Shown: piece after piece, positions 2,297 through 36,008 of the stretch
Position numbering within the stretch: position 1 is the first letter of the stretch
Layout of the letters: each line of letters opens with the position of its first letter
The notes under the pieces: generated by a model
What the model saw: only the letters and a program-made list of their open reading frames with translations
Database searches by the model: none
What the model was told of the DNA's origin: nothing
Program-made: the position numbers and the translations under genes
NCBI GenBank assembly: GCA_964566795.1
Contig: CAZMIU010000001.1
Coordinates: 79,388 to 143,387, forward strand
Source of the DNA: an uncultured Candidatus Saccharibacteria bacterium
GTDB lineage: Bacteria > Patescibacteriota > Minisyncoccia > Phycocordibacterales > SBAW01
Direction of reading: 5' to 3'
DNA length: 64,000 nt

Positions 2297-5200
2297 TTAG
2301 GCGCTGCAGGACTCGCAGGCTTCGCTAAGCACTTCTATCTTGGGGCGGGATTTGACCGCAAGAGGCGCGCCGCCAAGCGTGGGCACACCCGAGGAGCCTC
2401 CCATGCTCGCCTCGGCAGTAAACATGCTGCCCTCGGCGTACGGCGCCTTGCGAGCCTCAGCGATAAGCTCCATCTGGCCGGCGTCCACCTGCGCGGCCTC
2501 AACAGTAGCCACCACCTCGCCCACACTCATAAGCGCCACAGCCTCTGCGGCATTTTGAGCCTGCGTGGCCTGAGCCATGAGTGTGTCCTGGGTCGAGACG
2601 GTTACGGTCTCTTGTATCACGACCGTGCTTGCAATGCCGGAGGCCACCGGGGCGCCCGCGTCGGTGCTTGTGGTGTGCTTGGAGCTATCTATGGTCGACT
2701 TCTCAATGCGCGACGCTCCAAGTGTGCGCAGGTAGTAGGTGGTCTTGAGCCCCAGCCCCCAGGCGTACTGATACAGCTCGCTTAAGACGCGCCCGCTAGT
2801 GCCACCGTAGAAGATGTTTAATGACTGCGACTGGTCTATCCAGCGGCCGCGGTAGGCAGCTGCCTTGATAAGCCACTGCGGCTCCATCTCAAACACCTCC
2901 TTGTACTTCTCGCGTATGCCCGGAGGTATCTCGTGGATGTCCTGGACCGAGCCGTCGTGGAACTTGATGCGCTCAAGCATCTCGCTGCTCCAGAGCCCGA
3001 GCTTTTTGAGGTCCTCAACCAGATACTCGTTGACTATCATAAAGTCGCCGGCCATGTTGGACTTTACGTAGATATTTTTGTAAATAGGCTCCACGGTGGG
3101 GTAGCAGCCCGCGATGTTTGCGGTGGTGGCGGTGGGCGCGTGTGCCTGGGTGTTGGAGTTGCGCATGCCCCACTGGCGCACAGCCTCGCGCACCATCTGC
3201 CAGTTGAGCGTCTCGTGGCGCGGCACATCTATGCGCATACCGCGCTCCTGCTCCAGGAGGGCCAGGGTGTCCTGGGGCAAGATCCCGCGGTCCCACTTGG
3301 AGCCCTTGTAGGTCTCATAGGTGCCGCGCTCTTTGGCCAAAAGCGCCGAAGAGAGTATCGCGTGGTAGGAGATCACCTCCTGAGACTCGTCGCTAAACTT
3401 GACCGCCTCGTCCGTGTCAAAGTTGATACCCATCTTGTACAGGGCATCCATAAGACCGCGCAAACCTAGCCCCACGGGCCTATGGCGCATGTTGGAGTTC
3501 TTGGTCTTCTGCGTAGGGTAGTAGTTAACGTCGATAACGTTGTCGAGCATGCGCATGGCAACAGGTACCACGCGCGCAACCAGGTCGCGGTCAAAGCGGG
3601 CATCCGAGGTTACAAACGCCCCCAGGTTTAAGGAGCCCAGGTTGCATACGGCCGTCTCAGTTTTGGAGGTGTTGAGTGTAATCTCGGTGCACAGGTTGGA
3701 GGAGTGCACGACGCCCACATGGTCCTGCGGGCTGCGGACGTTGCTCGGGTCTTTCCAGGTAATCCAGGGGTGGCCGGTCTCAAAGAGCATGGTAATGTGC
3801 TTGCGCCAAAGATCTGCCGCCTTGACCACTTTGTGGAGCTTAATGTGGCCCTCCTGGGCCAATTTCTCGTAGCGCTCATACGCCTCATCAAAACGCTTGC
3901 CATACAGGTCATGCAGGTCGGGCGTGTCAGACGGGCTAAACAGCGTCCACTGGCCGTCCTCCTGGAGGCGCTTCATAAACAAATCGGGGATCCAGGTTGC
4001 TGTGTTGAGGTCGTGGGTGCGCCGGCGCTCATCACCGGTGTTTTTACGCAGTTCCATAAAGTCCTCAATCTCGAGATGCCAGTACTCCAGGTATACCGCG
4101 GTGGCGCCGCGGCGGCGGCCCGAGCGGTTAATGGAGATGGTGACGTCGTTCTCTATGCGCAGGAAGGGGACCACGCCCTGGCTCTCGACACCGGTCTTAG
4201 ACACCAAAGAGCCCACCGCGCGGATGTAGGACCAGTCGACACCGAGGCCGCCGGCATACTTCAAGAGCTGTGCGCCGTCTTTGTACTCGTCAAATATGGA
4301 GTGCAGGTCGTCCGGCACGGTAGAGAGAAAACACGAGGAGAGCTGGGGCACGGTGGTGCCTGCGTGATAGAGGGTCGGCGAGGAGGGCATGTAGTACATC
4401 GCCGACATGATCTCGTAAAACTCTATAGCCTGGGCCTGGCGTGCCTCAGGCGTCTTCTCGGCCAGAGCGCAGCCCATGGCAACACGCATCCAGAATATCT
4501 GCGGGGTCTCCAGCAGCTTGCGGGTTTTGTGCTCCTTGGAGAGATAGTTGGAGTGCAAAGTTTGTAGCCCGAGGTATTTAAAGTCGTTGTCCCGCTCTAT
4601 AACAAGCGCCTCTGCGAGCTTGGGCAGGTCAAACGAGAGCATCTCTGGGTCAAACCAGCCGATCTCCACGCCTTTGTGCATGCTGCGGACAAACGCAGCC
4701 TTGTGCTCTTCCTCCAGGCGGGTGTAGTCGGCAATCGGGCCTATAACCTCGCGATACATGTGCTGCAGCAGGAGCCGCGAGGCCACATAGGAGTAGGCAG
4801 GGTCGCGCTCAATCATGCTTCGGGTCACCATGATAAGCACGTCGTGGATGTCGTTGGTAGAGATGCCGTCGTACATCTCCTGGCGTACGCGGGCAATAAC
4901 GCCGCGGCTGTCTATGACAGACTCGTACCCCTTGCTTGCATACTTTAAGGAGGAGGCAAGTTTGTCCTCGCTAAAGTTCTCGCGGCTGCCGTCGCGCTTG
5001 GTTATAAGGAGTGCGTTGTCCTCTATCTTTTCTGCAACTTCGGCCTTGGCCTCCTCGCGTGCCTTCGCATGCTCGTAGCGGTAGATAATATAGTCTTTGG
5101 CCACGCCAAAGTACCCACGCTCCATAAGCGCCATCTCTACCAGGTCCTGCACATCCTCCACGGTTGGTATAAACGCCGTGTTGCCAAACTTGGCCTCGAG

Positions 5201-18007: not shown

Positions 18008-18544
18008 TTAGCGCCGGGCGGGGTTGAGTGCCTGATGTTTGGGCAAGGCACAGTAGTTGGAGCCTTGCATCCGCTCGTATCCGCAGCGGCGTCCGTCCTC
18101 GTCGTGTGCGTGGCACTGCGTTGCCTCACTCGCAGCCAACTTGTACTTCTGGGGGTCGTGCAGCTCAGTTGCGGGCTTGAGTGTGCCCACAAGCACGGGC
18201 ATTGTGTATACAACAGGGGGTGGGAGCTCTTCCGCGACGGGCTCGGGTTGGGGCTCGGGTGGCACAGATGGTGGTGCCGCGGCCTTGGGCTTTGCCGGCT
18301 TTGGTGCCTGCTTTTTTTGGGGCGCCGCGCTTTGCTTGGTTTTGTTCTCCTTTGGTTTTTTTGCCTTGCCAGGGCTCCTTGTCGAGGGGATCTTCTTCCT
18401 ATGGCGCAGCCCCGCAATGGCGTTTGGAGTTGTGCCAAGCTCCTCGGCAACGCTCTTGTTGGTGCCGCCTGCGAGCATAAGCTCTCTGACAGCTGCTTCC
18501 TGCTCCTTAGGAGACATGTCGTCGTAGAGTTTCTTTTTTACCAT
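18008..18544 (-). CDS. DNA-binding protein: sigma-70 region-4/LuxR-like HTH, Lys/Pro-rich linker, C-terminal Cys/His cluster
   Basis: SPKEQEAAVRELMLAGGTNKSVAEELG HTH; CHAHDEDGRRCGY..YCALPKH. Confidence 0.5.
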   Translation of the reverse strand: MVKKKLYDDMSPKEQEAAVRELMLAGGTNKSVAEELGTTPNAIAGLRHRKKIPSTRSPGKAKKPKENKTKQSAAPQKKQAPKPAKPKAAAPPSVPPEPQPEPVAEELPPPVVYTMPVLVGTLKPATELHDPQKYKLAASEATQCHAHDEDGRRCGYERMQGSNYCALPKHQALNPARR

Positions 18545-18691: not shown

Positions 18692-19171
18692 ATGAGTATC
18701 TCATCTGTGGGCGATGGGCATATCTTTGTCGAGGTTAAGGATCTTAAGGCGTTTTTTGATAAGGCAAAAAACTCAGACGGCAAGACAATCGGGCGCGGGC
18801 AGTTTGATTTCGTACTCCACATCACGGCGCTCCAGGGCGCAGTGTATATCCCGACCAGCATTGCCTCGGGCAAAAAGCCCACCGGCTTTGTCTACCAGAT
18901 AGAGGGCACCGCACAGGGGAGCATCTCGAGCGCGAGCGTGTCGGCCAAGGGCGAGGGCGTGTCGCAAGTCACGTTAGGCACCCTGGTGTATACCAAGATC
19001 CCGCAGGGCAAGACCGCCGCATGCAAAGCAATCGTGATGATAGAGGGGAGCGTTAACAAGGAGTACGGCGTGGTCATTAACCGCATCAACTACAAGCTCG
19101 ACCCGAGTGACGCCCGGTACAAAAAGTTTGATGTAGACCTCGCCTCCCGCGCCCTTGAGTTTAAGTACTAA
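18692..19171 (+). CDS. hypothetical protein (159 aa, beta-rich)
   Basis: clean ORF followed by strong terminator. Confidence 0.5.
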   Translation: MSISSVGDGHIFVEVKDLKAFFDKAKNSDGKTIGRGQFDFVLHITALQGAVYIPTSIASGKKPTGFVYQIEGTAQGSISSASVSAKGEGVSQVTLGTLVYTKIPQGKTAACKAIVMIEGSVNKEYGVVINRINYKLDPSDARYKKFDVDLASRALEFKY

Positions 19172-19173
19172 AA

Positions 19174-19210
19174 GAAAAGGCCGGAGCATGCTCCGGCCTT
19201 TTCTTTTCTG
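19174..19210. terminator. bidirectional terminator (gene at 18692 and tRNA-Asn)
   Basis: GGCCGGAGC-atg-CTCCGGCC flanked by AAAGAAAA / TTTTCTTTTCT. Confidence 0.7.
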
Positions 19211-19474
19211 CTCCTCGGGTAGGACTCGAACCTACAACCAACTCCTTACACGTATCCTCTAGTTACTTAGAGGCGTGGACTATATCACCATCCGCTTGGG
19301 ATGCTCCGGTATCTAGTCTCTACGGCGCCCCCAACCTCGTGTTGGGGTTCCCTCGGTGTTGCCCTTCTTATAAAAAGAATCGGGGTTCACCGATATCCCG
19401 GAGTTATTCGGTGCGCCTCGCGGCGCAAAGCTGCCAGTCGACAGGGAGCTGCTCTACCATTGAGCTACCGAGGA
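19211..19474 (-). tRNA. tRNA-Asn(GUU) interrupted by a group I intron between anticodon-loop positions 35/36
   Basis: exon1 TCCTCGGTAGCTCAATGGTAGAGCAGCTCCCTGT (19441-19474), exon2 TAAGGAGTTGGTTGTAGGTTCGAGTCCTACCCGAGGAG (19211-19248); splice-out gives canonical cloverleaf, loop CUGUUAA, discriminator G like E. coli tRNA-Asn. Confidence 0.7.
19249..19440 (-). mobile_element. group I self-splicing intron (192 nt, IC3-like, ORF-less)
   Basis: contains GTAGAGACTAGA (R/P7 element, identical to Azoarcus tRNA-Ile intron) and GATATAGTCC (S element); 5' splice site after U with CUGU/GCAG P1 U.G wobble; ends in G. Confidence 0.65.
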
Positions 19475-19498: not shown

Positions 19499-19526
19499 AT
19501 TATACATAATTTTTGAGATTGAACAA
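19499..19526 (-). promoter_or_regulatory. sigma70-like promoter for tRNA-Asn
   Basis: minus strand TTGTTC-16nt-TATAAT about 25 nt upstream of tRNA 5' end. Confidence 0.5.
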
Positions 19527-19546
19527 ACTTAACACCTGGTGTTATA

Positions 19547-19897
19547 TTGCCTTTGATGATAAAAGACTGCCGGTTACATGGGTCTGTAAAACACTTTCCA
19601 CGCCCGGACGGTGCATACCGTTGCGGCAAATGTGCGTCCGCGTGGGTGATAAAAAACAGACAAAAAAAGAAAGAGCGGCTGGTGCAGGAATTTGGCGGTC
19701 AATGCACTGTGTGCGGGTATAAAAAGTATGCAGGCGCACTCGACTTTCATCACACAAATCCAAAAAACAAGTCTTTTGCCCTGAGCGTCAAAGGCCTGTC
19801 GTATTCATGGGAGAGCCTGCTTAAGGAGGCTAAGAAATGTGTGTTGGTCTGCAAAAACTGCCATACAGAGATTGAGGCAGGGTTGCAATCTCTCTAG
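19547..19897 (+). CDS. HNH endonuclease (free-standing)
   Basis: CTVCGYKK..LDFHHTNPKNKSF..CVLVCKNCH HNH/zinc-finger signature. Confidence 0.8.
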   Translation: MPLMIKDCRLHGSVKHFPRPDGAYRCGKCASAWVIKNRQKKKERLVQEFGGQCTVCGYKKYAGALDFHHTNPKNKSFALSVKGLSYSWESLLKEAKKCVLVCKNCHTEIEAGLQSL

Positions 19898-20136
19898 TAG
19901 CGTTTCTGCAGAATTTCGTTAAAGCGGTCGGCTAACACGTCAAAGCCGGGTATGACACCCAATATAGACAAGAGCCAGCCAATGAGCACCACGCCCACGA
20001 TGGTGCCCAAGACAATCCCCACACCATAGAGCATGCCGTTTAAGAGGCTCTTGGTCGGCCGGTGCTCGGTATTTTCTTTAATCTCGTCGAGCAGGTGCTC
20101 TACCTTCTGTGCTTCCTGTTGTACCTGCGGGTCCAT
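19894..20136 (-). CDS. small membrane protein, hypothetical (co-transcribed with SET gene)
   Basis: start codon directly follows SET stop; helical N-term, one TM. Confidence 0.45.
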   Translation of the reverse strand: MDPQVQQEAQKVEHLLDEIKENTEHRPTKSLLNGMLYGVGIVLGTIVGVVLIGWLLSILGVIPGFDVLADRFNEILQKRY

Positions 20137-20583
20137 TTACTTAGTATACAGCCCGGGTGAGTGTTTGATGCAGCGGCAGCCTTTGGGCTTTATGTAGGCC
20201 TCCCAATAGTCTTTGTCATAGTCGTAGCCGATCTCCTCGCCGGCCCTGATCTTACGCTTAGCCATGACAAACACGCGGTGTTTGTAGATATCAATCTCGG
20301 CGTTGGGGCGGCACGAGTGGTTAATGTAGCGGGCGGTGTTCCAGCGCGGGGCGCCGTCTATGGTGACCCCGCCTCCGGCGTCAAAGAGGTAGAGGCTGTT
20401 TGAGTCCTCCTCTTCCTGCTTGCTCAGTATCTTGCCCCGGTACTCGATAATGCAGGCGCCCTTCTTGATGTCCTCCAAGGCAAAGAGCCCTAGCCCCGCC
20501 ACGGAGCGCTTTACCTTTAAATTAAAATTGCCTGGCGTGTATTTTTTGGGCCAGGCAGCCTTCACAACCTTGTTTTTCTTCAT
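20137..20583 (-). CDS. SET-domain protein (putative protein lysine methyltransferase)
   Basis: NHSCRPN, EEIGYDYD, post-SET CRC; AGGAA RBS before ATG 20583. Confidence 0.75.
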   Translation of the reverse strand: MKKNKVVKAAWPKKYTPGNFNLKVKRSVAGLGLFALEDIKKGACIIEYRGKILSKQEEEDSNSLYLFDAGGGVTIDGAPRWNTARYINHSCRPNAEIDIYKHRVFVMAKRKIRAGEEIGYDYDKDYWEAYIKPKGCRCIKHSPGLYTK

Positions 20584-20665
20584 ATTGGATATTCCTTTGT
20601 AGCATACGATAAGGCCGGGGTACAATGGGGACAGCGGGCGATTAGCAGGTAATCTAGCGTACGGG

Positions 20666-21028
20666 ATGAATTACAACATCAAGGGCACCGGTATCGAGGT
20701 TACTGATGAGCTTAGGGGCTACGTGGAGCGCCAGCTGGCGCACGCCGACAAATTTTTATCTCCTGACCCCACAGCCCATGTTGATGTAGAGCTGCAGTAT
20801 TTAGAGGACGGCCGCTCGGGCAAGTATCGCGCCGAGTTTACGGCCTCGGCCTCCGGAGAGGTCTACCGCGCGGAGCGCTGGGGCCAGACCATGCACGAGG
20901 CCATAGACGTGGCCGGGGCCGAGCTTGCCCAGGAGCTTTCCCGGGATAAAAAGAAAAAGCAGTCGGTATTGCGCCGCACCTCGGTGAGGGTGAAGGAATA
21001 CCTGCGCGGTTGGCGAAGCGACATCTAA
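20666..21028 (+). CDS. hpf: ribosome hibernation promoting factor / RaiA (short form)
   Basis: MNYNIKGTGIEVTDELRGYVERQL.. matches HPF/YfiA family. Confidence 0.8.
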   Translation: MNYNIKGTGIEVTDELRGYVERQLAHADKFLSPDPTAHVDVELQYLEDGRSGKYRAEFTASASGEVYRAERWGQTMHEAIDVAGAELAQELSRDKKKKQSVLRRTSVRVKEYLRGWRSDI

Positions 21029-21071
21029 TTTGCTAGGGTAGGCTTAGTTTGAACCACAAAAGGAGGGCGCT

Positions 21072-21545
21072 ATGCCCCAGATTGATACGACTGCGTCCGC
21101 AACAGAGCATAATCGCAGGTTCTATTCTGAGGAAGCTTGCAGGATGTGTGAGCGGGCGAGCAGGCTCGTTTCTGTACTCAACCACAATGAACCCCACGGC
21201 TCCTCGCCTTGGCTCGCGACCTTGGCCGAGCTTAAGGCGCTGGTGCCACCTGGCGTCTACGAACTCCACAAGAGCACCTCAGCAGACCTCAAGCTCTACA
21301 CCGTGCTCGGTGTGGGCGACCACACAGAGAAGAGGGGCGAGTTTCTTGTTGCCTGCATCGCGCACTATGCACCGCACAAGGGCAACTTGTGCTACCGACC
21401 TCTTTTGGGCGAGGGTGGGTTCTTGACTCCGGTTCGCAGGATGACCCACGACGACCCTGCGGTTGAGTACTATGTGCCGCGATTCAAGTTCGTCACCCAG
21501 TTGCCACTGAGTTTTGAGCACTTTGTTGAGCTCTCAACCGGCTAA
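21072..21545 (+). CDS. hypothetical protein (157 aa)
   Basis: clean ORF; no recognizable motif. Confidence 0.45.
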   Translation: MPQIDTTASATEHNRRFYSEEACRMCERASRLVSVLNHNEPHGSSPWLATLAELKALVPPGVYELHKSTSADLKLYTVLGVGDHTEKRGEFLVACIAHYAPHKGNLCYRPLLGEGGFLTPVRRMTHDDPAVEYYVPRFKFVTQLPLSFEHFVELSTG

Positions 21546-21551
21546 CACCAA

Positions 21552-22325
21552 CTACCTTTGCCCTCGCTGATAATCAGCGTAGGGCATTTCTTTTTTCCCT
21601 TCGGGTAATACCTTTTCAATCACAAGTTCGCCATTACTCCAGCTGGCTTCGGTTACAATCACACGCTTGCCTTTGTCTGTAATAAAGTACGCGCGCGGGT
21701 TTTTATCGAATGCCCTGATTTTAAGGAATGCTTCGCGCGGCTTGGTAAGGTCTATAAGCGCGTCAGCGTCGTGATACTTTTTTGTAAACGTAGCCTCGCT
21801 CTCGTTTTGGTACTGCGGCGTGAGCGTGCCCTTCATAAGCGCGGGTAATATCTCCACCAAAAGGTTTACACCCTCCACAAAGAGCATCTCGCTCAAGAGG
21901 AGGCCTTTGGGTGGCCAATCACTCTCGTCTATCTCGATGCGTGCCTGGGCGAGTATGGGCCCGGCGTCCATGGTCTCGGTCATCTGCATCACGGTCACGC
22001 CTGTGGTGCGCTCGTCGGCCAGTATTGCGGATACATACGGAGAAGGGCCCCTAAACTTGGGCAAAAGGGACGGGTGGACGTTAATGCAGCCAAACTTTGG
22101 CAAATCTAAAATTGCTTTAGGCACAATTTTGCCAAACGAGCACACCAAGATAAAGTCCCACTCGCTATTTGTCAGCTCGTCCGGGAATTCTTTGGTGTCT
22201 ACCACAAGTGCGGGCTCGAGTCCGGCCTTCTTCAGGGCCCCCAAGGCAAAGTGAGAGTCAATGGAGGTGCCCAAAAAGGCAAACTTAACGTTACTTAGAC
22301 TCATGCAGGTCGCGCGCCTTATCAA
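21552..22325 (-). CDS. fmt: methionyl-tRNA formyltransferase (short, C-terminal domain reduced)
   Basis: NVHPSLLPKFRG formyltransferase motif; follows def. Confidence 0.8.
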   Translation of the reverse strand: MIRRATCMSLSNVKFAFLGTSIDSHFALGALKKAGLEPALVVDTKEFPDELTNSEWDFILVCSFGKIVPKAILDLPKFGCINVHPSLLPKFRGPSPYVSAILADERTTGVTVMQMTETMDAGPILAQARIEIDESDWPPKGLLLSEMLFVEGVNLLVEILPALMKGTLTPQYQNESEATFTKKYHDADALIDLTKPREAFLKIRAFDKNPRAYFITDKGKRVIVTEASWSNGELVIEKVLPEGKKEMPYADYQRGQR

Positions 22326-33957: not shown

Positions 33958-34311
33958 TTACTGCTTGGCGTTTGCGGTGGCGGTGTATGCGCCTTCGATC
34001 AGCTTGGCCAACCTGGCGGCTGGCGGCTGTTGAGTGAGGCCCAGGCGCTTGGCGTAGTCGGTCAGACCCTGTGCAGTCCTGTCCTGGACTTGGGAAAGCG
34101 CCCATTTCTTGGGCTTGCCCCACTCGCTGCTGTCGGGGGTCTTCTTGCGGACCCACACATAGGTCTCGACTCCGTTCTGGATGTAGTCGAGCATCAGCTG
34201 CGACTCGTCCTCAAAGTAGGCTTCTCCGTCTACCTGGACAGACCGGATAAGTGAGTGCCCCTCCGGAAGGTTGAGTTTTCGTCCCTTAACAATCTGGCAT
34301 CCCATTGCCAC
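33958..34311 (-). CDS. hypothetical protein (117 aa)
   Basis: ORF only. Confidence 0.35.
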   Translation of the reverse strand: MAMGCQIVKGRKLNLPEGHSLIRSVQVDGEAYFEDESQLMLDYIQNGVETYVWVRKKTPDSSEWGKPKKWALSQVQDRTAQGLTDYAKRLGLTQQPPAARLAKLIEGAYTATANAKQ

Positions 34312-34490
34312 ACGTCCTGTTATGCCCCGTAGGGCGTTGCGGTTTAGCCCTGTGCAACGCTGTAGTAACGCTACCCATAGTTCGGCGTACTCTGTACTTC
34401 TCGCCGTATAGTAGCGTACTACTCTTTTTTACCCCGTCAAGTGTGGGGCTCATATACCGCCTTAGCCCAAAAAACGCTATAGTTGAGGGA

Positions 34491-36008
34491 ATGTTTTGGG
34501 CAGACCGCATTGTCGGGGAGATTGAGAAGCGCTTTGGTAAGCCGGGGCGCCCTTTGCTTATACGCGACGAAAAGACCCTTTCTGGGCGTGTGCACGTGGG
34601 CTCTCTTCGCGGGGTGGCCATACACGGGCTTGTGCATGAGGTGCTTGGCGAGAAGGGGGTGGAGACAACATTTAAATTTGAGTTTAACGACTACGACCCC
34701 ATGGACGGGATCCCGGCATATTTGGACCAGGCCGCGTACGAGAAATATCTGGGCATGCCGCTCAAAAATATCCCAAGCCCTGAGGATGGTTATGACAACT
34801 TTGCCGAGTACTACGGCGCCGAGTTTAAGGGGGTTATAGAGGCCGCGGGTTGGCACACAGAGGTGTACCGCTCGAGCGAGCTTTACCTCAAGGGCCAGAT
34901 GGATGAGGTAATACGCCAGGCACTTGAGGGTGCAGAGGATATCCGCCGCATATACAAGCAGGTCTCCGGTGGCGAACGTAAAGACACATGGCTTCCCATA
35001 AGCGTTATCTGCCCCACATGCGGCAAACTCTCAACCACGTTTGCGTCAGATTTTGACGGCGAGACTGTGCAGGTTCAGTGTCGCGACCTCGACTGGGTAA
35101 AGGGCTGCGGGTTTGAGGGCCGCGTCTCTCCGTTTGGCGGTAGGGCCAAACTCCCGTGGAAGGTCGAGTGGCCCGCCAAGTGGAAGGTGATGGGGGTCGA
35201 AATTGAGGGCGCAGGCAAAGACCACTCAACCAAGGGCGGCTCGCGCGACGTGGCCAACCATATTTCCAAAGAGGTGTTTGCGTACGAACCGCCGTTTGAT
35301 GTACCATACGAGTTCTTTTTGGTGGGTGGTAAGAAGATGTCCTCGTCAAAAGGGCAGGGCAGCAGCGCCAAAGAGATTGCAGATCTTGTGCCGGCCAAGA
35401 TTTTGCGCCTCGCGCTTTTGAGCAAGGACCCCATGCACGCGTTTAGCTTTGACCCGGAGGGGGATACCATCCCTGTTTTGTACGACCTCTACGACAAGTT
35501 GGCCGCAGAGTACTGGGCGGGCACGCGCGATGACTTCTCTAGATTGTTTGAGTATGTGCATCCGGGCCGCGCCATCCCGGCACAATCCACGCTCCCGCGC
35601 TTTAGCCAGGTGGCGTTTGTGGTGCAGATGCCGCATATGGATATCTACAAAGAGTTCCCCGAGGCCGACCGCGCCGAGCTCGATGAGCGTGCCAAGTACG
35701 CGGCACACTGGCTAGAGGCGTATGCGCCCGAGAAGTTTGTCTTTAAGCTCCAGGACGAGCTGCCTGAGATAGCCCGTAATCTGCCCGACACAAGCAAAGC
35801 GGCGCTCAAGGCTTTGCACGAGTATATCTCCAGCCAAAGTGACATGCCCACCGGCGAGGAGCTCCATACCGAGCTCCACAAAACCAAAGAGTTTAAGGCC
35901 ATCTATTTGGCCTTTTTGGGCAAGGAGAGCGGCCCCAAGGCCGGGTGGTTCCTCTCATCGCTCCCGCGCGACTTTGTGCTCAGGCGTTTAGAAGAAGCGT
36001 CCAAATAG
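34491..36008 (+). CDS. lysK: lysyl-tRNA synthetase, class I (archaeal/LysK type)
   Basis: FWADRIV, GRVHVGSLRG (HIGH region), IEGAGKDH, KMSSSKGQG (KMSKS); GAGGGA RBS before ATG 34491. Confidence 0.75.
   Translation: MFWADRIVGEIEKRFGKPGRPLLIRDEKTLSGRVHVGSLRGVAIHGLVHEVLGEKGVETTFKFEFNDYDPMDGIPAYLDQAAYEKYLGMPLKNIPSPEDGYDNFAEYYGAEFKGVIEAAGWHTEVYRSSELYLKGQMDEVIRQALEGAEDIRRIYKQVSGGERKDTWLPISVICPTCGKLSTTFASDFDGETVQVQCRDLDWVKGCGFEGRVSPFGGRAKLPWKVEWPAKWKVMGVEIEGAGKDHSTKGGSRDVANHISKEVFAYEPPFDVPYEFFLVGGKKMSSSKGQGSSAKEIADLVPAKILRLALLSKDPMHAFSFDPEGDTIPVLYDLYDKLAAEYWAGTRDDFSRLFEYVHPGRAIPAQSTLPRFSQVAFVVQMPHMDIYKEFPEADRAELDERAKYAAHWLEAYAPEKFVFKLQDELPEIARNLPDTSKAALKALHEYISSQSDMPTGEELHTELHKTKEFKAIYLAFLGKESGPKAGWFLSSLPRDFVLRRLEEASK

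Follow-up and report, generated by a model that had tools for sequence, protein, structure and literature searches.

An interrupted tRNA-Asn gene

The window, by which is meant the whole 64-kb stretch of DNA analysed here (contig CAZMIU010000001.1 of assembly GCA_964566795.1), carries on its minus strand, at 19211–19474, a gene for asparagine tRNA (tRNA-Asn, anticodon GUU) that is interrupted in the anticodon loop by a group I intron, and beside it, on the plus strand, a small gene that appears to encode an HNH endonuclease. The initial annotation of the locus had described a split tRNA-Asn(GUU) with halves of 34 and 38 nucleotides (nt) around a 192-nt insert, and these coordinates and lengths proved exact. 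The parts of the gene are as follows.

19441–19474, minus strand: exon 1 of tRNA-Asn (tRNA nucleotides 1–35), 34 nt, TCCTCGG...CCCTGT, with the acceptor strand UCCUCGG, the D arm, the anticodon stem GCUCC and the loop CUGU as far as U35
19249–19440, minus strand: group I intron without an open reading frame (ORF), 192 nt, following a U and ending in the omega G at 19249
19211–19248, minus strand: exon 2 of tRNA-Asn (nucleotides 36–73), 38 nt, TAAGGAG...CCGAGGAG, with UAA, GGAGU, the variable loop, the T arm GUAGG/CCUAC, the acceptor strand CCGAGGA and the discriminator G; CCA is not encoded

The joined halves had been expected to form a canonical cloverleaf, and on the ligated sequence ARAGORN indeed reports a 72-nt tRNA-Asn(GTT). 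Ligation restores the anticodon GUU, the insertion lying between nucleotides 35 and 36 of a tRNA with a GUN anticodon. The exon body is nearly identical to that of the intron-bearing tRNA-Asn genes at three other loci (L017, L043 and L100), from which it differs solely in one compensatory acceptor pair. In a comparison with 258 intron-less tRNAs of the collected loci, the body shows an identity of 0.82–0.84 to tRNA-Asn and of 0.70–0.72 to the best of 56 tRNA-Thr, and all top matches are tRNA-Asn, regardless of whether the exons are ligated as tRNA-Asn or, by an alternative cut discussed below, as tRNA-Thr. In addition, the body carries U1-A72 and G73. G73 and the anticodon are identity elements for asparaginyl-tRNA synthetase.

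Standard annotation misses this gene. Over the whole window, ARAGORN with default settings finds a tRNA-Glu and a tRNA-Pro only, with no gene at 19211–19474, and Rfam at gathering thresholds likewise reports just these two tRNAs, while intron-aware tools mislabel the gene as tRNA-Thr. As a result of such missed or mislabelled genes, the genome would seem to be without tRNA-Asn, which distorts completeness estimates of Patescibacteria, a concern also raised in a recent article on introns of this phylum (PMC13011429).

Structure and covariation of the intron

The insert had been proposed to be a group I intron with two core motifs and no ORF, and each of these points holds. The motif GTAGAGACTAGA is located at 19323–19312 and GATATAGTCC at 19286–19277, and there is no credible ORF in the insert, as the ORFs overlapping it are short and spurious, the longest being an antisense frame of 71 amino acids (aa). 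A full secondary structure was derived by hand from the Rfam Intron_gpI alignment. A P1–P9 fold had been named in the initial annotation as a check, and in the structure obtained P1–P9 and P9.0 are all present and, in the window, each of the 60 pairs proposed is canonical. The helices, all on the minus strand, are listed in the order of the transcript.

19431–19444: P1, in which exon C32–U35 (CUGU) and intron C1 pair with intron G6 and GCAG, with a wobble between U35 (19441) and G (19434)
19412–19427: P2 hairpin with a GCGA (GNRA) tetraloop; six of six pairs covary, and the G and A of the loop are invariant
19398–19403: 5' strand of P3, CUCCGG, with its partner at 19304–19309; 100% paired, with double changes in four of six pairs
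19324–19393: P4-P5-P6 domain, comprising P4 (19388–19393 with 19353–19358), P5/P5a (19362–19384) and P6/P6a (19324–19352)
19314–19320: 5' strand of P7 (G, bulged A, GACUA), inside GTAGAGACTAGA, with its partner at 19277–19282; presumed guanosine-binding helix
19304–19309: 3' strand of P3, CCGGAG, separated from P7 by the 4-nt spacer GAUA
19289–19303: P8 hairpin, in which four of five pairs covary
19277–19282: 3' strand of P7, UAGUCC, inside GATATAGTCC, placed by the fold
19250–19276: P9.0 (ACG with CGU) around P9, which has a GUAA tetraloop; it abuts the omega G directly

Because only the four nucleotides GAUA lie between P7 and the 3' strand of P3, the intron has no P7.1/P7.2.

The fold is supported by covariation in an aligned set of 26 homologous tRNA-Asn introns. 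In this set, 88.2% of the cells pair, compared with 34–43% when the partners are slid by 1–3 columns; changes on both sides occur in 35 pairs, and none of 500 shuffles matches the observed values. Covariation is found in P2, P3, P4, P5, P8, P9, the P1 extension and P9.0. The CUGU/GCAG pairing of P1 is invariant, while the pair that extends it occurs as CG in 11, GC in 10 and AU in 5 of the introns, and the P9.0 pair 175–199, which lies just 5' of the terminal G, occurs as CG in 21, UA in 4 and AU in one. Approximately 70 columns are invariant in the family, all of which are preserved in the window intron. Moreover, the unconstrained minimum free energy structure (−81.9 kcal/mol, z=−3.85) recovers P1, P2, P4–P7, P9.0/P9 and the anticodon stem.

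Independent support comes from a covariance model, R1, which was built from 25 related tRNA-Asn introns with the window excluded. In the 64 kb it has a single match, at 19449–19241, which covers the full length of the model with 190.5 bits (E=1.9e-58), on par with the scores of the other members. The general Rfam model Intron_gpI (RF00028), a scan with which had also been named as a check, bears out the assignment in part: in a search of 501 nt, the whole model aligns to 19454–19256 with E=3.4e-9, at a score that is taken up below. By these results the insert is far beyond chance, and a group I core with a P3/P7 pseudoknot is confirmed.

Relationship to published tRNA introns

A scan of genomes, each representing a different species, for both core motifs with a T arm after them returned at least 120 loci, nearly all of them in metagenome-assembled genomes (MAGs) of Patescibacteria. 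Among the matches listed (L002–L121), which form a pattern-biased sample whose host-tRNA counts are not frequencies, correction of the cuts made by ARAGORN gives as hosts tRNA-Asn at 29 loci, tRNA-Asp(GUC) at 41 and tRNA-Tyr(GUA) at about 18. In all of these the intron interrupts the gene at 35/36 (CUGU–intron...G–N), and the CUGU/GCAG P1 is common to them; in a small number of Arg, Lys and Met genes the intron is placed elsewhere. For many Tyr genes the label given by ARAGORN is 'Ser(tga)', and for many Asn genes it is 'Thr(tgt)'. Hosts of the type His(GUG) were rejected, as the 'His' calls of ARAGORN are mis-parsed Asn or Asp genes and no case was verified. It may be speculated that the 4-nt guide common to all C32-U33-G34-U35 loops reflects a spread by reverse splicing, with which it is compatible. 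The closest intron among the matches listed is that of a Patescibacteria MAG (L060), with 81% identity over 269 nt.

The four classical types of tRNA introns were enlarged to 21 by Williams 2020 (bioRxiv 10.1101/2020.01.27.920355), and one of these, Asn.4Ug, is credited to that preprint by Nakagawa et al. 2026 (mSystems, PMC13011429), who note that its tool sometimes gave Thr.2Ug. The latter article reports introns at 35/36 in 15 tRNA-Asn and 3 tRNA-Asp genes of 95 complete Patescibacteria genomes, and 28 introns at this position in 4,934 complete genomes, 19 of which are in Patescibacteria. In addition, for one intron each from tRNA-Asn and tRNA-Asp, it demonstrates self-splicing in vitro, both on gels and by sequencing the ligated exons, and it describes the miscall of such genes as Thr(UGU) with an intron at 33/34 by ARAGORN and tFind.

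The intron of the window is a new member of this class, which has been known since 2020 and for which splicing was demonstrated in 2026. It agrees with the Patescibacteria 35/36 introns of PMC13011429 in tRNA, site, phylum, the CUGU/GCAG P1, the terminal G and the ARAGORN miscall, and its homology to other Asn.4Ug members is evident from the R1 match and from L060. The initial annotation, which counted only Leu, fMet, Ile and Arg genes as hosts of group I introns in bacteria and regarded an insertion at 35/36 of tRNA-Asn as unusual, has been overtaken on both points by the 21 types of 2020 and the 15 tRNA-Asn introns of 2026. Its suggestion of an affinity to subgroup IC3, the basis of which was the two core motifs, finds no support either; in PMC13011429, 25 of the 28 introns at 35/36 are classed as IA and none of the Patescibacteria tRNA introns as IC.

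Within the class, the window intron belongs to a compact sub-lineage. This sub-lineage is present in Table S3 of PMC13011429 as the introns of GCA_030583765.1 (Asn), GCA_023898525.1 (Asp) and GCA_016699995.1 (Tyr), which contain both GTAGAGACTAGA and GATATAGTCC and are 78–83% identical to the window intron over aligned columns; the window's own sequence was not found in the examined part of the supplement. The Asn intron shown to splice (GCA_016700035.1, 234 nt) differs from the compact 192-nt window intron in having a P7.1/P7.2-type insertion and another P4-P6 sequence. By analogy with it, the window's sub-lineage is predicted to splice, and a natural ribozyme this small, which the window adds to the class, could serve as a model.

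More distant introns share part of this architecture. A known ORF-less intron of ~200 nt in a tRNA anticodon loop resembles that of the window in having P2 and P9 hairpins with GNRA tetraloops and neither P5abc nor P7.1/7.2, but differs from it in tRNA, insertion site and guide sequence. A stretch, GUAGAGACUAGA, is said to be common to these two introns. The tRNA-Leu(UAA) intron of Nostoc PCC 7120 (Table S4 of PMC13011429) is similarly a self-splicing group I intron of the anticodon loop that is spliced after a U, but it is inserted at 34/35, has GCAGAGACTCGA and no GATATAGTCC, is longer in P8/P9 and measures 249 nt. The exact match of core sequence to the cyanobacterial tRNA-Leu intron that had been claimed for the window is accordingly wrong for Nostoc PCC 7120.

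Alternative readings of the locus

Several observations weigh against the locus being a functional gene with a self-splicing intron. With 41.2 bits, the Rfam match falls short of the gathering score (50), and over the whole window there is no Rfam intron match, either at the gathering threshold or in E-value mode. At the time of Williams 2020 (bioRxiv 10.1101/2020.01.27.920355), however, the Rfam seed for group I introns had no bacterial sequence, and bacterial tRNA introns were routinely detected far under the cut-off, at 18–20 bits. P7 is invariant in the 26 introns and is without covariation support, the exon part of P1 is just 4 bp, and P10 is at most 2 bp. In a crude global alignment, the two introns that have been spliced in vitro are 68–71% identical to the window intron (71% for the validated Asn intron) versus 72% for the unrelated Nostoc tRNA-Leu intron, a measure that does not discriminate and is not used as evidence of relatedness. 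The locus is nevertheless very probably a functional Patescibacteria tRNA-Asn(GUU) gene with a compact self-splicing group I intron between U35 and U36.

Of the competing explanations, the one that survives best, improbable as it is, holds that the insert is decayed or splicing-incompetent and that this copy is a tRNA-Asn pseudogene, with another gene supplying the tRNA. The evidence spans 64 kb of the genome, in which Glu and Pro are the only other tRNAs, so that an intron-less tRNA-Asn could sit elsewhere, and the introns spliced in vitro are of other sub-lineages than that of the window; both of these, too, count against the functional reading. A decayed copy is nevertheless hard to reconcile with a sequence in which every intron helix is intact, the ~70 family-invariant columns are kept and the R1 score equals that of other members. 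Moreover, the exons are canonical, the acceptor change relative to L017, L043 and L100 is compensatory, and the gene is flanked by a TATAAT hexamer and a terminator-like hairpin (see below).

More improbable still is the reading as tRNA-Thr(UGU), in which the intron is placed two bases further 5', at 33/34 (CCCU–GUCG...AUACG–UGUAAGG, dashes marking the splice sites). ARAGORN in intron mode reports precisely this, a tRNA-Thr(tgt) with a 192-nt intron, and two cuts do give a U before the intron and a G at its end, one after U35 (Asn GUU) and the other after U33 (Thr UGU). The splice site of the initial annotation, a U.G wobble with a terminal G, is present as claimed, but the second cut, which went unnoticed there, fits the same rule of a U before and a G at the end. 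The Asn cut is favoured because of the U35.G wobble, the covariation of P9.0, the homologues with introns ending in AUG or UUG, which permit the Asn cut only and are incompatible with that for Thr, and the Asn-like body, including U1-A72, G73 and the identities given above. Under the Thr cut, U33 would stand opposite a U, or would have at most two pairs with the guide, and P9.0 would be detached from the terminal G even though its covarying pair is in the Asn register; it is this covariation that assigns the terminal G. In addition, the identical miscall has been documented and disproved by experiment for related genes (PMC13011429).

The idea that the halves are independent RNAs, either of a split tRNA or brought together by chance, and that the DNA between them is no intron would agree with the silence of default ARAGORN and of Rfam at gathering thresholds at this locus, but it is highly improbable, given that a group I model aligns to the intervening DNA over its entire length, that the same layout with covarying helices recurs in no fewer than 29 genome and 19 metagenome loci, and that the 3' half has no promoter-like element ahead of it.

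Flanking signals and proposed splicing pathway

Two features next to the tRNA-Asn(GUU) gene bear on its expression.

19499–19504, minus strand: TATAAT, a −10-like hexamer with TG before it, 24 nt ahead of the 5' end of the tRNA gene, recognized by reading the sequence
19170–19207, no strand assigned: GC-rich perfect hairpin GGCCGGAGC/GCUCCGGCC, with an A-run and a T-run on its flanks, lying between the 3' end of the tRNA gene and the convergent ORF at 18692–19171

A promoter scan called none on the minus strand for the tRNA gene, and the −35 element (TTGTTC) is weak. The hairpin, judged from its sequence, is probably a bidirectional terminator serving both the tRNA gene and the convergent ORF; it yields a series of sub-threshold Rfam matches of small RNA, leader and terminator type, and was not called by the terminator scan. 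A terminator-like call inside the intron (19394–19379) was set aside as a chance match, its location being the P4/P5 region. Compared with window positions 19150–19203, the Logan contig SRR14271372_6592 (L001, 15.7 kb), an independent assembly of the same organism, stops within the terminator hairpin, a few bases before the tRNA gene, and hence breaks at the tRNA-Asn locus.

The standard group I route consists of two steps and is initiated by guanosine (PMC3984707; PMC13011429). For the gene in the window, the precursor would be transcribed from its own promoter, probably the TATAAT at 19504–19499, and would end at the hairpin at 19207–19170. The core P3–P8 would then fold with the P3/P7 pseudoknot, and the CUGU of the anticodon loop would form P1 with the guide GCAG, including the U35.G wobble. 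Free guanosine would attack 3' of U35, after which the last G of the intron (19249), placed by P9.0, would take the place of the free guanosine in the P7 pocket, and ligation of the exons would regenerate the loop CUGUUAA. The tRNA would be completed by RNase P, 3' trimming and CCA addition. That this copy splices is inferred from the in vitro splicing of other 35/36 introns (PMC13011429). In published surveys, an intron-less copy with the same anticodon is rare in the same genome (PMC13011429), so splicing is probably essential here, where this gene would be the only tRNA-Asn gene of the cell. Any mobility of the ORF-less intron, in turn, would derive from the adjacent free-standing HNH gene.

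A neighbouring HNH gene

Divergent from the tRNA gene, and next to rather than in the ORF-less intron, lies a gene of a homing endonuclease family.

19556–19897, plus strand: free-standing gene for an HNH endonuclease (113 aa, counted from ATG), 81 bp upstream of the tRNA gene and divergent from it

Its product scores 21.2 bits with Pfam HNH, the cut-off being 21.4, matches PHROG 2255 with E=5e-24, and is 48% identical (E=6e-28) to the HNH ORF within the tRNA-Asn 35/36 intron of GCA_023898525.1. On the strength of these matches, the gene is identified as a putative HNH endonuclease gene related to intron-encoded ones, and is a candidate for the homing endonuclease partner of the intron. Between the window and L060, which has the closest intron, the gene is a presence/absence polymorphism: L060 has ~1 kb (3068–4045) where the window has ~2 kb (19504–21579) that hold the HNH gene, a SET-domain gene, a hibernation-factor gene and a 157-aa ORF, and the L060 stretch corresponding to the HNH-bearing part has no HNH homologue and no matches. 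The SET-domain protein gene is at 20137–20625 on the minus strand (Pfam E=9e-23).

Among the genome loci listed, homologues of the HNH protein occupy several positions relative to the intron. They lie inside the P1 loop of the intron at L077, L078, L106, L014, L102, L101, L097 and others. They lie upstream on the same strand, with a gap of 0–10 nt, at L012 (1218–1535) and L065 (3255–3557), as well as at the metagenome locus L190 (1038–1352); at L012 the HNH stop codon TAG falls within the first 12 bases of the tRNA. An upstream and divergent arrangement like that of the window is found at L046 and L030 among the genomes and at L122–L128 and L130 among the metagenomes. One distant homologue is near an Asp gene, and none of the genome loci listed has one near a Tyr gene.

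A wider view was obtained by a metagenome scan with protein alignment, which returned at least 553 relatives; the counts that follow concern the best 80 of these. A tRNA-Asn gene is within ~160 nt in 73 of the 80, and the layouts are as follows.

42 loci: intron-less tRNA-Asn 50–70 nt downstream on the same strand, on contigs of 63–74% GC
12 loci: other layouts beside an intron-less tRNA-Asn
9 loci: HNH within the intron
8 loci: HNH divergent, adjoining an intron-bearing tRNA-Asn
2 loci: HNH upstream of, and codirectional with, an intron-bearing tRNA-Asn
7 loci: no nearby tRNA-Asn, 4 of these at contig ends

The divergent group makes up eight of the nine closest relatives of the window protein, the ninth being upstream on the same strand. 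The ORFs of all nine are intact, as is the CxxC..HH..CxxCH motif in them and in the window protein. The contigs of 63–74% GC are clearly not from Patescibacteria (within L131–L201, e.g. L134 2501–2972 and L158 2501–2967). In some tRNA-Asn genes beside HNH genes, the D arm is odd or the variable arm is long (85 nt; e.g. L133, L143 and L153). In low-GC tRNA arrays, an HNH ORF can have a tRNA-Asn on both sides (L162 2397–2902; L166 2364–2929), which could mark duplication or gene conversion driven by the endonuclease. The family comprises at least 7,959 protein clusters, most of which are unannotated, and its members in cultured phages lie in tRNA arrays, sometimes, though not always, adjoining a tRNA-Asn. 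In Acinetobacter phage Aci05 (NC_048080.1 9388–9459; L203 1709–1780), the tRNA near the HNH gene is annotated as 'tRNA-Val-GTT', a label that looks wrong because GTT is an Asn anticodon.

The family is therefore encountered in four settings: on high-GC contigs next to tRNA-Asn genes that lack an intron, within tRNA arrays of low-GC metagenome contigs and cultured phages, beside intron-bearing tRNA-Asn genes, and inside the P1 loop of the intron. That 73 of the 80 loci adjoin a tRNA-Asn suggests a homing endonuclease that, although free-standing, works together with the intron. We tentatively propose that the intron and the divergent HNH gene may form a two-part mobile unit, and that the HNH protein may be one of a very large family of tRNA-Asn-specific homing endonucleases, most of them unannotated, a possibility that is well short of established. 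A simple homing model, in which presence of the intron makes its site immune, does not account for the 54 of the 80 relatives that lie beside intron-less tRNA-Asn genes, so the target may be at another place within the gene or next to it.

Precedents for such a layout are known from phages. It resembles collaborative homing, as in F-CphI and the psbA intron of cyanophage S-PM2 (PMC6083498) and in mobE and I-TevIII of T4 (PMC2790892; reviewed in PMC3984707), and the setting of the window HNH gene resembles that of free-standing endonucleases in phage tRNA clusters, such as SegB of T4 and F-TflI/II/IV of T5 (PMC2330249). Like the collaborative systems, the HNH family is tied to one conserved target gene and has homologues both outside and inside the intron. 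The window differs from them in that the arrangement is on a bacterial chromosome and involves a tRNA gene and not a phage protein gene. In PMC13011429, endonuclease genes were sought only within introns of more than 500 bp and no free-standing neighbour is described, and a literature search returned no paper describing an association of the HNH family with tRNA-Asn, which may be new. If tRNA-Asn genes are indeed the target of the family, these loci preserve several stages in the association of an endonuclease with a group I intron, outside phages. The HNH neighbour could in that respect matter more than the intron itself and is a lead worth following.

Host and gene content of the window

The window is chromosomal DNA of a host in Patescibacteria (Parcubacteria/Paceibacteria-like). 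The named relatives of its DnaB are from Ca. Nomurabacteria (84% identity), Minisyncoccia (80%) and Parcubacteria/Paceibacterota (75%). A host among Firmicutes or Saccharibacteria, to which sortase and spore-like domains and the tRNA exons had pointed, was rejected in view of these DnaB relatives. The window also encodes NrdA, PBP2, LysRS, MurF, CysRS, GltX, ProRS, MreB and def-fmt, and its fmt-def region is syntenic with that of the Patescibacteria MAG L060. A weak GcrA-like ORF is at 18008–18544 on the minus strand (22 bits, under the cut-off), and the lysyl-tRNA synthetase, encoded at 34305–36008 on the plus strand, is of the archaeal-type class I.

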